Source: Escherichia phage NHEP29. Taken from it: a DNA stretch of 64,000 bases. The translations under genes and the position numbers were made by a program. The notes below the pieces were generated by a model. The model had not been told where the DNA came from, ran no database searches, and saw only the letters and a program-made list of their open reading frames with translations. Position 1 is the stretch's first letter. The number at the start of each line of letters is the position of its first letter. Positions 2,292 to 5,601 of the stretch are shown here, piece after piece. The DNA lies in the sequence record PQ511150.1. One strand, given 5' to 3'.

Positions 2292-2596
2292 TATAATGTT
2301 CTCTCAAATTTGTGGAAGCATTTACGGCATTTCAATTTCAAGTTATCAGTAGTCCAGTTAACCAGTTGGACTTGGATAGTTCCACATTCCGGGCATGGAT
2401 GTTTTGCTGCCGATTTGGCAGCATTTTCACGTCGTTCAACCATTTTCATGATTTCGTTCCATGCCGGAGGAACGAACTCTTCTTCACCGTGGATTTTATC
2501 TCGCTGAACAAATTCAATCTTTGAACTATCGTCAATAAACTTAACCAAGCCATGATTAGTGCTCATATCAATATCCTCTAAAAGACGTAGTTTCAT
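2291..2596 (-). CDS. Hypothetical zinc-ribbon protein
   Basis: 101 aa with CPECG...CRKC motif. Confidence 0.6.
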   Translation of the reverse strand: MKLRLLEDIDMSTNHGLVKFIDDSSKIEFVQRDKIHGEEEFVPPAWNEIMKMVERRENAAKSAAKHPCPECGTIQVQLVNWTTDNLKLKCRKCFHKFERTL

Positions 2597-3546
2597 TATA
2601 AAACCTCAATGGCGTTTCGTAAACCATCAGCTTTTGCATTCAGAGCTTTTAATGATTTAGTTTGTTCTGCAATCTGGGCTTCGACTTCTTTCAGACGAGA
2701 TTTGAGATATTCGCGTTCTTCTCTTAAATTATCAACTTTTTCTACTTTAGGTTCTTTAATAGGCTTAGGTTTATACGTATTAGGGTTCTTCAGCTTAATT
2801 TGAATACGAGAACTGAATAACATTGAACCGTTATCTTCGGTTTCGCTGAACATTTCAACAACATCCATAGTCTGTAACATCATACGAAGTTTATAAGACA
2901 ACGAACGAACGGTTTTGTTGTGCTTATTAATTTCTTCGGCTTTCATGGTACCGAGATTACGTGAGTAGTAATACGGAACCTGGATATCAATTGACAATGA
3001 TGCGTTACCATTACCAGTTGGTTTGAATACTGCAGTAACCCAATCCTTAACATGAACCGTATTTGTACGATCATCGCCGCCTGTGAATAATTTACGTGAA
3101 TGTTTAAAAAGCATATTCACTTGGTTATTGAATTCACAAGCAAATTTATCAGCAAATTTAGTTTCAGGAATGGTAGATAACCAATCAGCTAAATGAGTCT
3201 TTTTAACATCGTTAATAATAGTAAATTCAACTAAATCAGTTTTAGATGTCACAGATTTAATAAAGCTCGGCTTCATAAAGTTTTTAATGTTATCACGAGC
3301 CACAGTAGAAGATAACAAACGAGAACGTTTGAACCATTGAAGCAGTGTCCCTAATGAATGAGAATACGCATTCTGAGTATCTTTACAGATATGATTTTCT
3401 TGACCTGTATATGTACCAAAATCTCGAAGAATACCACTTACTACATCTCGGTGTGGAACATCAAATCCTAGTGCACCAGTAGCGCGCTGAGCATGAACGT
3501 TAGCGATAAGACCTGCAAAATAATCAATGTAATGTGAACGTGTCAT
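2596..3546 (-). CDS. Uncharacterised protein, paralogue family member 1 (C-terminal coiled coil)
   Basis: 316 aa; shares KFADKFA..N.VNML / SRLL...NF segments with the next two ORFs; own upstream promoter. Confidence 0.7.
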   Translation of the reverse strand: MTRSHYIDYFAGLIANVHAQRATGALGFDVPHRDVVSGILRDFGTYTGQENHICKDTQNAYSHSLGTLLQWFKRSRLLSSTVARDNIKNFMKPSFIKSVTSKTDLVEFTIINDVKKTHLADWLSTIPETKFADKFACEFNNQVNMLFKHSRKLFTGGDDRTNTVHVKDWVTAVFKPTGNGNASLSIDIQVPYYYSRNLGTMKAEEINKHNKTVRSLSYKLRMMLQTMDVVEMFSETEDNGSMLFSSRIQIKLKNPNTYKPKPIKEPKVEKVDNLREEREYLKSRLKEVEAQIAEQTKSLKALNAKADGLRNAIEVL

Positions 3547-3567
3547 AATATTTTCCTCTCGTTAAGA

Positions 3568-3604
3568 TAGAAAGATTATACTCCAACCATCCTTGGTTGT
3601 AAAC
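3568..3604 (-). promoter_or_regulatory. T4-type early promoter (GTTTAC -35, 18 nt spacer, TATAAT -10) with palindromic spacer
   Basis: Minus strand reads GTTTAC-aaccaaggatggttggag-TATAAT; SD and ATG at 3546 follow. Confidence 0.6.
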
Positions 3605-3608
3605 TGAT

Positions 3609-4556
3609 TTATGATTTTAATGCATTCATTGCGTTAAAAAGTTTAGAGTACTGCAACTGGAGCTTGGTAACTACTTGTTGAGCATCACGAAGCTTAGCTT
3701 GTGCTTTGTCAAGTTCAACGGATAGTTGGTCTACAGTGGCCTTTATTTGATTATAATGGTAATCTTCGGCAGGAAGAAGACCATTAGAGATTTCCAGTTT
3801 TGCTTCCGGTAAAGTATATACAGACGGTGTGCCGTTAAACATAACAGGTTGTGCTGAAGCTGCATTAATCTTACCGATAATCGGTGTAATAATTGACGCT
3901 TCGAACGTTGCATTTTCCTTTTTAAGATTTTGATAGTATTCAGAGTCTTTGTGCCACCATGGCGCAGGAACCTTTTTACCAATAGATACACGGGCCTGGA
4001 TAGCGATATGGCCCTTATTCTTGATAGGGTTGATAATATTAAGCTCACGAGAATAAATTGCTTTAATCTGGTGAATATTATCACCTAACACTTCCAACGC
4101 TTGGTGGAATACACGAGCAACGTTATCATTCTTAGGTTTATACGTAAGAGTGAACTCATTCTCACTGATAACCATGATTTCTAACTTATCGTAAGTATAT
4201 TTCAAATGTTTCATATTAATTGCTTGAGGACGAATACGAGAAGCAATGGCCATCAGATTGTTAAGGTTATTCCGGAACTGCTTAGCGAAATATTGTCCTT
4301 CACCGCCAATACAAAAATTACGAAGTTTCTGTTTGGCTAATAAACGGCTGAACTCACCATTTTTAATGAACTCTTTAACGGGTGTGTTAGTAACGCATTC
4401 AAATTGAGTAAACTTACGAGAAGTAATCCCATAATATGAACAGACTTCCTCAATCTCTTCAGGAGTCTTTACAGGCATACGGATAGGATTAGGACCTGGG
4501 GTATATGCGTTCGAGGTAAATTCTTTGATAAGTTCTCTACGTGTAATAAAAGCCAT
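3609..4556 (-). CDS. Uncharacterised protein, paralogue family member 2 (C-terminal coiled coil)
   Basis: 315 aa; YFAKQFRNNLNNLM and EFSRLLAKQKLRNF align with neighbours. Confidence 0.7.
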   Translation of the reverse strand: MAFITRRELIKEFTSNAYTPGPNPIRMPVKTPEEIEEVCSYYGITSRKFTQFECVTNTPVKEFIKNGEFSRLLAKQKLRNFCIGGEGQYFAKQFRNNLNNLMAIASRIRPQAINMKHLKYTYDKLEIMVISENEFTLTYKPKNDNVARVFHQALEVLGDNIHQIKAIYSRELNIINPIKNKGHIAIQARVSIGKKVPAPWWHKDSEYYQNLKKENATFEASIITPIIGKINAASAQPVMFNGTPSVYTLPEAKLEISNGLLPAEDYHYNQIKATVDQLSVELDKAQAKLRDAQQVVTKLQLQYSKLFNAMNALKS

Positions 4557-4575
4557 TTTATATTCCTCATGTTGA

Positions 4576-4612
4576 AAAATTTATTATACTCCAACCATCC
4601 TTGGTTGTACAT
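4576..4612 (-). promoter_or_regulatory. T4-type early promoter, same cassette as 3568-3604
   Basis: Near-identical repeat tatactccaaccatccttggttgta; -10 TATAAT, -35 TGTACA. Confidence 0.55.
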
Positions 4613-5601
4613 CATTCCTTAAGAAGTTTTACTACTTGAATAAGATTAGCTCGTTCTGTTTTATTTTTACCGTTTAAGCCTGCTAATCGTGAGATTTCAT
4701 CGTCAGTCTGTTGAATAGTTACATTAAGTTCATTAATCAAAGCTTCAAAGTATTTGATTTGCTCAGCATGTTTTGATTCAAATTTCTGAACCGGAATAAC
4801 GTTCAGTTCATCAATAAGGTCTTTAAGAGCATCTTCTTGGTTGATGTCATATTCAACTTCTTTTATTTCTTCAACGAGCTCGTCTTTATATCTAACGTCT
4901 TTTAGTCCTGGAGCTGGTCCTGAAATCTCTTCTTTAAGAGTACAAACATATCCAATACGGTATTGGATACCGTCTCGCTTGATATCAACTTCGTCAATAA
5001 ATCCACAATGTTTAAGACCAGAGCCGATTAGGTCAAAATATCCTTGACGTCGTCCTTCAAACGTTACACGAACTACTAAGACAGTTTTACCTGCAACCTT
5101 TTGAAGCTCACATTTATAAAAGTCTGTTGAACCTGAATAACGTGGATGAGTTTTAAAGTTCATCTGACGATCTAGGCCCATTTGTAAGCGTGCTGATACG
5201 GCCATAAAACGTGTTTGGTTCTCGTTAAGATGAGCAACAATCCATTTCAAAGGCATTTTACACTGTTCACGACCGAACAAATCAGTACGTCCTAGATTAC
5301 GCAGGATGTTGTTAGAGTTAATCATCGACAGAACGTTAAGTTTATTCAGCGCGCTGAAGATTCCATCGGCCATTGATTTTCCGTAACCTTTACACGCTTT
5401 AATAAGCGCTCGCGGTAGATTAGTATAGATTTCAGACGGCATATGAAAATCAAATTTACTAGTCAGTAATTGATGAACTTGGATAGCAATTTGTTCATAA
5501 TTAAGTGCTCTGCGATCATTATGGTCTTTAAACCACACTTTAATCTGTGAAGCACATAAACCGTTAATTTCATGTTTTACCGCATCAGATGTAATGCTCA
5601 T
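4612..5601 (-). CDS. Uncharacterised protein, paralogue family member 3 (C-terminal coiled coil)
   Basis: 329 aa; SMADGIFSALNKLNVL and VSARLQ...NF segments align with members 1 and 2. Confidence 0.7.
   Translation of the reverse strand: MSITSDAVKHEINGLCASQIKVWFKDHNDRRALNYEQIAIQVHQLLTSKFDFHMPSEIYTNLPRALIKACKGYGKSMADGIFSALNKLNVLSMINSNNILRNLGRTDLFGREQCKMPLKWIVAHLNENQTRFMAVSARLQMGLDRQMNFKTHPRYSGSTDFYKCELQKVAGKTVLVVRVTFEGRRQGYFDLIGSGLKHCGFIDEVDIKRDGIQYRIGYVCTLKEEISGPAPGLKDVRYKDELVEEIKEVEYDINQEDALKDLIDELNVIPVQKFESKHAEQIKYFEALINELNVTIQQTDDEISRLAGLNGKNKTERANLIQVVKLLKE

Follow-up and report, generated by a model that had tools for sequence, protein, structure and literature searches.

Three adjacent genes in the nrdC region of Escherichia phage NHEP29 as ancient, heavily diverged paralogues with a putative counter-defence function

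Are three consecutive genes of nearly equal size in the nrdC region of a T-even phage related to one another, and if so, what might such a family do for the phage? This question is raised by a locus of Escherichia phage NHEP29 (PQ511150.1), from which a stretch of 64,000 nucleotides (nt), here called the window, was analysed. A preliminary description of the window had pointed to three open reading frames (ORFs) as tandem, diverged paralogues under diversifying selection, possibly acting in host range or counter-defence. These ORFs, termed A, B and C in this work, are present exactly as described, with the coordinates, strand and lengths given in Table 1, and each is preceded by a GAGG ribosome-binding site. 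The phage belongs to Mosigvirus, a group of RB69-like T-even phages, and over the 3.4 kb around ORFs A-C its nt identity is 99.4% with Escherichia phages NHEP36 and NHEP11 and ~96% with vB_EcoM_JS09 and further members of the group. Every gene of the region lies on the minus strand. Named by comparison with the annotated JS09, RB69 and T4 records, the genes are transcribed in the order nrdC.11, a small ORF, nrdC.10, nrdC.9, nrdC.8, nrdC.6 (C), nrdC.5 (B), nrdC.3 (A) and nrdC.2, with an nrdC.7-like ORF, nrdC, several small ORFs, pin and gene 49 downstream of nrdC.2. The explanation that we consider best as a whole, with a probability of about 0.6, is that A, B and C are ancient paralogues with a putative counter-defence function.

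Current databases split the three ORFs over three separate families, both in PHROGs and in Pfam. ORF B matches the Pfam family DUF7235 (PF23882) with 374.4 bits (E 6.4e-112; the cut-off, or gathering score, is 30 bits), its residues 15-314 covering positions 1-307 of the model; T4 NrdC.5, whose identity to B is only 23%, is a member of this family as well (420.6 bits). ORF A gives a full-length hidden Markov model (HMM) match to phrog_1435 (E 9.1e-106, residues 1-316), a family matched by both NrdC.3 and NrdC.4 of T4, and shares 57% identity with T4 NrdC.3. A full-length HMM match likewise places ORF C in phrog_2257 (E 1.2e-124, residues 1-329) together with T4 NrdC.6 (E 6.4e-126), C being 29% identical to T4 NrdC.6 and 98% identical to RB69 nrdC.6. 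The DUF7235 HMM does not match A or C at E <= 1, and T4 NrdC.3 matches it in the tail only (E 0.18). No match was obtained in scans with NCBIfam and PADLOC, and no enzymatic domain was detectable in profile searches of Pfam, PDB or NCBIfam, in keeping with the preliminary description, which had recognised no enzymatic motif.

Some annotated members of these families differ in their C-termini. T4 NrdC.6 (275 amino acids (aa); positions 5567-6394 of the T4 locus, L002) aligns with C up to about residue 292 and has a truncated tail, and the NrdC.6 of JS98 (281 aa) retains the tail end that the T4 protein loses. For the reference RB69 nrdC.5 gene (positions 3571-4473 of the RB69 locus, L003) the annotation gives 300 aa and an unrelated C-terminus, …TNCLLNWTRHKLSSVMLKVL, and two tblastn pieces are needed to cover it. 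A frameshift, be it a real mutation or a sequencing error, deprives this record of the coiled-coil tail.

Compared directly with one another, A, B and C show nothing significant. Pairwise BLASTP gave best E values of 0.32, 0.035 and 0.15 over short patches only; tblastn searches of 50,697 phage records with each protein in turn found one place per record and never a neighbouring gene; and hhalign on the shallow alignments of close relatives returned probabilities of 0.3-1.9%, the best local alignments of these runs coinciding with motifs named in the preliminary description. Word-indexed homologue searches with A, B and C retrieved close relatives only, and a search for related loci in viral contigs yielded just 2 loci. 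A mixed profile of A, B and C, run in a deep HMMER search against 1.84 billion representative sequences, produced 9 matches, all of them from the three families or fragments thereof and none from outside relatives, a number so small that the family must be confined to a narrow group of phages. Within T4, NrdC.3 and NrdC.4 are clear relatives (hhalign 97.5%, E 8e-12). The empty pairwise BLASTP and tblastn comparisons, like the division into three families in PHROGs and Pfam, speak for the view that A, B and C are unrelated genes of similar size which share only a convergent coiled-coil tail and composition.

Evidence for common descent comes from an intermediate family. With the widely conserved nrdC.10 as an anchor, the equivalent locus was fetched from other genera, and in Winklervirus, Moonvirus, Jiaodavirus, Gelderlandvirus, Karamvirus and Kagamiyamavirus it holds at the equivalent position, upstream of nrdC, a single ORF of 322-352 aa, which we call the hub ORF; one ORF of 335 aa adjoins nrdC in an Acinetobacter T4-like phage. 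The hub ORFs are mutually ~16-30% identical, with the exception of those of CHI14 and EcS1 (from related genera), which are 50% identical. In these six genera the hub ORF is preceded by an ORF of ~260 aa (Table 1) that is 65-80% identical across them, so that adjacent genes stand in sharp contrast in evolutionary rate (~25% identity for the hub). The 260-aa ORF has its own early-type promoter and is unrelated to the nrdC.3-6 superfamily proposed below; that it might be a diverged nrdC.6 was considered and rejected (hhalign E 0.05-0.5).

Each of the nrdC families links significantly to the hub. Local hhalign comparisons with a hub profile built from 5-8 sequences (the main figures are from eight members) gave 97.2% (E 3.8e-11) for nrdC.3, 87.6% (E 3.5e-6) for nrdC.4, 96.1% (E 3.4e-9) for nrdC.5 and 89.9% (E 1.7e-6) for nrdC.6. 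When the last 60 residues were deleted from every sequence the links persisted, with E values of 1.2e-5, 1.1e-4, 2.1e-5 and 6.1e-5, respectively; reversed-profile controls gave E values of at least 0.03, and the unrelated 260-aa family gave at least 0.5 against the hub. A repeat with MAFFT and hhalign linked A (94.7%, E 5.9e-8), B (95.3%, E 2.2e-8) and C (69%, E 4.4e-5) to the hub, the alignment of C consisting of 142 core columns and no coiled coil. Iterative HMMER searches, with the database size set ~13x above the real one and 48 ORFs of the same loci as decoys, led from B in five rounds to exactly 30 nrdC.3/4/5/6 and hub sequences and to none of the 48 decoys, and control searches started from the 260-aa ORF and from nrdC.10 remained inside their own families. 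Since the alignment of C with the hub lies wholly in the core and the links survive removal of the tail, what is shared is a globular core and not the coiled coil alone, as would have been the case for compositional likeness of the tails.

Several cross-family matches are nonetheless confined to the tail, among them that of the single sequence B to the hub, and these, too, favour unrelated genes with convergent tails. They are set against tail-less hub links in the range of E 1e-5 to 1e-4, an alignment of C made up of core columns only, colinearity over 220-290 columns with shared blocks, negative reversed and unrelated controls, and the merging of the groups without decoys by iterative HMMER; the unrelated-genes explanation was already disfavoured and is in our view very improbable. 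Significant, colinear profile similarity that includes the core, with negative controls, is what we would ask of a superfamily, and such similarity was found. Because each of A, B and C links significantly to the hub family while the controls are negative, these three ORFs are very probably ancient, heavily diverged paralogues, and nrdC.3/4, nrdC.5, nrdC.6 and the hub would constitute one superfamily. The paralogy that the preliminary description had proposed, invisible in pairwise comparison, is thus borne out by profile alignment through an intermediate. On the same evidence, A and C are remote homologues of the DUF7235/NrdC.5 family, reached via the hub, and not members of it.

The hub-guided alignments have four blocks in common. 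Block 1 has the pattern 'RRSR..A..A..L(K/R)(N/E)(F/M)' (Table 1); block 2 is a long helix with 'FA..F...(L/N)N...N.L' (A 128-154, B 85-111, C ~116-143); block 3, 'L...L..M(D)(V/F)V', closes an internal helix; and block 4 is the extreme C-terminus, where the hub reads L..AiEVL. Of the conserved segments listed in the preliminary description, two hold up in these alignments, where A and B have their SRLL...NF blocks and their FA..N..L helices at equivalent positions. The C peptide 'SMADGIFSALNKLNVL' (C 76-91), taken there as the third FA..N..L segment, was mis-assigned: it sits at and just before the SRLL block, and the helix corresponds in C to residues ~116-143. The coiled-coil tail of about 50 residues is well supported. 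A heptad scan marks residues 267-316 of A, 263-315 of B and, more weakly, 279-307 of C, and AlphaFold2 (AF2) predicts single long terminal helices at 275-315 in A and 264-314 in B (predicted local distance difference test score (pLDDT) ~70-80), so that heptad periodicity and a long uninterrupted helix of ~45-55 residues are found together. This coiled coil is the part best conserved between the paralogues. PDB searches with the three profiles returned marginal coiled-coil matches only (GCN4, ZapB, SMC, prefoldin).

The AF2 models of A and B have their elements in the same order, viz. a long helix, three strands, a helix, two strands, a linker and a long terminal helix; beyond this common order, the structural comparison suggested by the preliminary description met with low pLDDT and weak Foldseek matches to relatives. 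Foldseek against PDB found nothing; against BFVD, the low-confidence A model gave weak full-length alignments to T4-like phage proteins. We infer that a 346-aa CBH8 protein weakly matched by this model is the hub ORF of CBH8, since one of the ORFs of this phage is identical to the hub of CHI14 and both length and source agree. In the common architecture, a variable helical N-terminus would lead into a conserved 'RSRLL..(N/E)F' block with a long helix behind it; a small core of the order beta-beta-beta-alpha-beta-beta would come next, joined by a variable linker to a C-terminal coiled-coil-like helix of 45-55 residues whose end is conserved as L..A(I/L)EVL-like.

The number of copies varies among the T-even phages. 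T4 carries four consecutive copies (nrdC.3/.4/.5/.6), Mosigvirus three (nrdC.3/.5/.6, with nrdC.4 missing from the window) and the Dhakavirus JS98 also three (nrdC.6, orf86, which is.5-like, and nrdC.4), the order nrdC.6-.5-(.4)-.3 being the same in all of them. The genes are tandem paralogues, but the term tandem triplication used in the preliminary description overstates the case, with four copies in T4, a different three in JS98 and one in other genera. The T-even group would have expanded a single copy at the ancestral locus to three or four tandem copies, every one of them preceded by a short promoter-hairpin cassette of its own.

The cassettes upstream of A and B are of the early type (Table 1), and a 27-nt core, TACAACCAAGGATGGTTGGAGTATAAT, is identical (27/27) in the two, where 0 matches would be expected by chance, in accord with the near-identical promoters reported before the first two ORFs. 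The spacer of the A/B promoter is a hairpin, CAACCA-AGGA-TGGTTG, with a 6-bp stem and -6.9 kcal/mol; its stability is modest (z -0.9 and -2.0). The same cassette pair is present in RB69, JS09 and a viral contig. The claim that each gene has its own early promoter holds for A and B and fails for C: upstream of C, TTTACC and TATAAT are separated by just 11 nt, and no sigma-70-type site was called in this region by the promoter scan. The region reads instead CGCTTTA-N13-TATAAT, an arrangement of the C type that recurs upstream of T4 nrdC.7 and JS98 nrdC.6, and the T4 MotA-box consensus is matched at 6 of 7 positions and in spacing by AAACGCTTTA-N13-TATAAT. From this MotA-box-like element we infer that C would be driven by a MotA-type middle promoter, and read-through from the early promoter upstream of nrdC.8 may possibly add to its expression.

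Related hairpin cassettes lie upstream of nrdC.3, nrdC.4 and nrdC.7 in T4 and of nrdC.4 and nrdC.6 in JS98. They keep a constant A(A)GGA loop with the arms CAACCA/TGGTTG, AGCCA/TGGCT, CCACA/TGTGG, CATCC/GGATG, TACCA/TGGTA or ACCC/GGGT, and the hairpin is found in two contexts, TTTAC-N17-TATAAT and CGCTTTA-N12/13-TATAAT. The variation of the arms by compensating changes suggests that the hairpin itself is under selection. With no T-run after the stem and only -6.9 kcal/mol, an efficient terminator is unlikely. A further sigma-70-like match (TTTACG-N17-TATAAT, 10/12) lies within the final codons of A, at 2595-2623 on the minus strand. We rejected it as a promoter, given that the -10 hexamer runs into both the A stop codon and the initiation codon of nrdC.2 (TATAATG); the match probably arises incidentally from conservation of the sequence that encodes '…NAIEVL*'.

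Cassettes of this kind are known in T4-type phages as PeSL (promoter early stem-loop), in which variable ORFs are flanked by early promoters whose -35 and -10 boxes enclose a stem-loop (Arbiol et al., 2010, PMC2839356; Comeau et al., 2014, PMC4122927). The A/B cassettes resemble PeSL in being repeated between non-essential ORFs of a hyperplastic region, and both defining elements were found here, a sigma-70-like promoter (at A and B, not at C) and a conserved stem-loop in the -35/-10 spacer. They differ in that the stem is centred on CCA-AGGA-TGG, has 4-6 bp and is followed by no T-run, and in that the copy at C stands in a MotA-box-like context. With its own promoter-hairpin cassette, each gene would form an independently expressed, exchangeable module.

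Selection on the three genes was assessed by the pairwise Nei-Gojobori method against four Mosigvirus relatives. The gene-wide ratio of nonsynonymous to synonymous substitution rates (dN/dS, or omega) is 0.07-0.10 for A, 0.21-0.35 for B and 0.06-0.09 for C, as compared with 0.01-0.05 for nrdC.10 and nrdC.11, and in the cores and coils omega is 0-0.17. No value above 1 was obtained gene-wide or by region, the highest regional omega being <= 0.92. Positive selection, gene-wide or regional, was accordingly rejected on these pairwise values (omega 0.06-0.35, regions <= 0.92), and the diversifying selection put forward in the preliminary description gives way to purifying selection on A, B and C within Mosigvirus. 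The excess dN/dS of B is confined to the hypervariable linker between its core and coil, where dS is 0.6-1.9 and dN 0.26-0.56, with indels, against a dS of 0.05-0.14 in the flanks (four close relatives). As dS is raised alongside dN, the linker points to an imported, mosaic segment and not to positive selection, and it was probably replaced by recombination. To judge from these comparisons, A, B and C encode functional proteins that are constrained over short evolutionary times and have diverged extremely from genus to genus.

The mosaic segment of B with its very high dS also bears on how the array arose. Already diverged members may have been imported by recombination between promoter-hairpin cassettes (PeSL-mediated shuffling), a mechanism that has been published (PMC2839356; PMC4122927). 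Each gene is flanked by a related cassette, those of A and B being identical at 27/27 positions while the coding sequences have diverged beyond recognition, and the subsets of paralogues differ between genera. However, the shared order nrdC.6-.5-(.4)-.3 fits a single ancestral array followed by losses, and no donor lineages were identified. We regard assembly by import as somewhat unlikely; it is compatible with, rather than opposed to, the explanation of A, B and C as ancient paralogues with a putative counter-defence function.

The counter-defence function is suggested by one branch of the family and by the surroundings of the locus, an anti-defence island that is already known. The product of pin, downstream in the same region, acts against Lon. 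Of the other neighbours, nrdC.1 counters Septu (bioRxiv 10.1101/2025.11.20.689424) and gp49.2 inhibits OLD (PMC13096335). A T4 clone that has lost nrdC.5 through a deletion is unable to grow either on E. coli ECOR17 or on Dsr1-carrying MG1655, and expression of nrdC.5 restores the growth of T4 on Dsr1 cells (Srikant, Guegler and Laub, 2022, PMC9391042). T4 NrdC.5 and B share a Pfam family over their full length, the position in the locus, the size and the coiled-coil tail; they differ in sequence, and the anti-Dsr1 activity is known from the T4 protein, not from B, and A and C are related to it remotely, through the hub. With an activity against Dsr1 in B's own Pfam family and neighbours that inhibit OLD and Septu, the suggestion of counter-defence made in the preliminary description is plausible. 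No published function for nrdC.3, nrdC.4 or nrdC.6 was found in the open literature searched.

On this explanation, A, B and C would be pre-replicative proteins which the phage can do without and which disable immune proteins of the host, probably by binding them directly in the form of coiled-coil oligomers, a single scaffold serving several specificities; B, a DUF7235/NrdC.5 member, would act against a Dsr1-type SIR2 NADase, and A and C against other systems or variants. Garb et al. are said to have found in 2022 that the phage protein DSAD1 blocks the SIR2-domain NADase DSR2 by binding. DSAD1 is a functional analogue only, from another phage group and with DSR2, not Dsr1, as its target, and no relationship to the present family is claimed. 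A counter-defence role for B has, by our reckoning, slightly better than even odds, and as B is just 23% identical to T4 NrdC.5, it may target either Dsr1 or another protein. For A and C, which are candidates by homology and genomic context, such a role is more tentative and falls short of even odds. A more specific, and doubtful, proposal is that the paralogues make up a modular counter-defence array, in which the coiled coil would serve homo- or hetero-oligomerisation or docking onto one shared partner, and the divergent N-terminus and core would recognise different immune sensors, Dsr1 in the case of NrdC.5.

True paralogues could also serve primarily in a general host-takeover or metabolic role, for example in NAD+/nucleotide metabolism or on a host complex, the anti-Dsr1 effect of NrdC.5 then being indirect. 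No mechanism has been published for NrdC.5 in the literature searched, strong purifying selection is equally typical of housekeeping-like accessory functions, and the locus lies amid the nucleotide-metabolism genes nrdC, nrdD/G and tk. Against a metabolic role stand the dispensability of the genes in the laboratory, the nrdC.1-6 block being removable from T4 (PMC9825161), their extreme divergence between genera (~25% identity, as against 65-80% for neighbours), the variable copy number, the proven anti-defence genes around them and the lack of a detectable enzymatic domain. A primary role of this kind is, in our estimation, unlikely.

A number of observations weigh against the explanation by ancient paralogues with a putative counter-defence function. 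Family-to-family hhalign comparisons are non-significant (nrdC.3-nrdC.5 E 0.004, nrdC.5-nrdC.6 E 0.3, nrdC.3-nrdC.6 E 0.04); the link depends on a profile of 5-8 very divergent hub sequences, and single hub sequences compared with the family profiles give E values of 1e-4 to 0.1, which are individually not significant; and iterative HMMER started from A or C stays within its own family at the chosen threshold. The mean pLDDT of the AF2 models (A 52, B 45) is too low for fold assignment, and Foldseek searches of BFVD with these models return their own family alone as significant, the paralogues not being retrieved significantly. With respect to function, no arms-race dN/dS signal is seen among close relatives, anti-Dsr1 activity is recorded for T4 NrdC.5 only, a protein 23% identical to B, and no published data were found to bear on counter-defence by nrdC.3 or nrdC.6.

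The features of the locus are collected in Table 1. Among the neighbouring genes, nrdC.10 (6676-7677, minus strand) encodes a P-loop (AAA-like) nucleoside triphosphatase found in 1,311 phage records, from Tevenvirinae to T4-like phages of Vibrio, Acinetobacter and Aeromonas and some jumbo phages, and nrdC.11 (8049-9038, minus strand) an RlaP-type nucleotidyltransferase; for both genes, omega values of 0.01-0.05 indicate very strong purifying selection. A G+C-rich hairpin, AAGGGCC-CGAA-GGCCCTT (8021-8047), between nrdC.11 and a 91-aa ORF at 7726-8001, is terminator-like on both strands. The nrdC.7-like membrane protein gene (1878-2291, minus strand) adjoins nrdC in Mosigvirus, with a 23-nt overlap with the 5' end of nrdC; in T4, nrdC.7 lies between nrdC.8 and nrdC.6, which implies a local relocation of the gene within the region. 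Over the rest of the window the GC skew changes sign at ~30000-34000, being negative below ~30 kb and positive above ~34 kb, and this change fits a switch in the predominant direction of transcription.

Table 1. Positions of the three ORFs, their conserved segments and upstream cassettes in the window, and of the ~260-aa ORF beside the hub in loci of other genera.
Feature	Coordinates	Strand	Description
ORF A, nrdC.3 orthologue	2596..3546	-	316 aa; phrog_1435, PF26897
ORF B, Mosigvirus form of nrdC.5	3609..4556	-	315 aa; DUF7235/PF23882, phrog_2351
ORF C, nrdC.6 orthologue	4612..5601	-	329 aa; phrog_2257, PF26899
Block 1 in A, 'RSRLL...NIKNF'	3274..3330	-	residues 73-91; aligned to hub 'RRSR...A..rLr'
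Block 1 in B, 'FSRLLAKQKLRNF'	4311..4361	-	residues 66-82
Block 1 in C, 'LNKLNVLSMINSNNILRNLG'	5290..5349	-	residues 85-104
C-terminal coiled-coil-like helix of A	2599..2748	-	residues 267-316, end LRNAIEVL
C-terminal coiled-coil-like helix of B	3612..3770	-	residues 263-315, end LFNAMNALKS
C-terminal helical tail of C	4615..4791	-	residues 271-329, end LIQVVKLLKE; weaker heptad signal
Hypervariable linker of B, between core and coil	3771..3911	-	residues 216-262
Early-type cassette upstream of A	3575..3603	-	TTTACA-N17-TATAAT, 11/12 consensus matches
Early-type cassette upstream of B	4583..4611	-	TGTACA-N17-TATAAT, 10/12 consensus matches
Cassette upstream of C	5637..5665	-	AAACGCTTTA-N13-TATAAT; shorter hairpin ACCC-AAGGAC-GGGT
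~260-aa ORF beside hub	L007:11031-11804, L008:11284-12072, L009:11295-12083, L010:10328-11110, L011:11702-12469, L014:622-1398		

The genes studied here are already known, being annotated in hundreds of genomes, and one branch has a published role. What appears to be new with respect to the searchable literature and family databases is the union of nrdC.3/4, nrdC.5 and nrdC.6, filed in databases as three unrelated families, into one putative superfamily, and the observation that this superfamily is single-copy and hyper-divergent in most Tevenvirinae and present in 3-4 copies in T-even phages. For fast-evolving phage accessory genes the case indicates that paralogy can escape not just pairwise searches but also comparisons of family with family, and come to light only once an intermediate lineage is included. 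Through kinship with NrdC.5, which acts against Dsr1, three 'hypothetical proteins' become specific candidates for counter-defence screens, and the family offers a natural series, one scaffold with several specificities, for studying how NrdC.5 disarms a SIR2 NADase. If the more specific proposal of a modular array is true, the expansion to 3-4 copies would have broadened the set of defence systems that T-even phages neutralise, and nrdC.3, nrdC.4 and nrdC.6 would encode inhibitors, so far unrecognised, that act on other systems.

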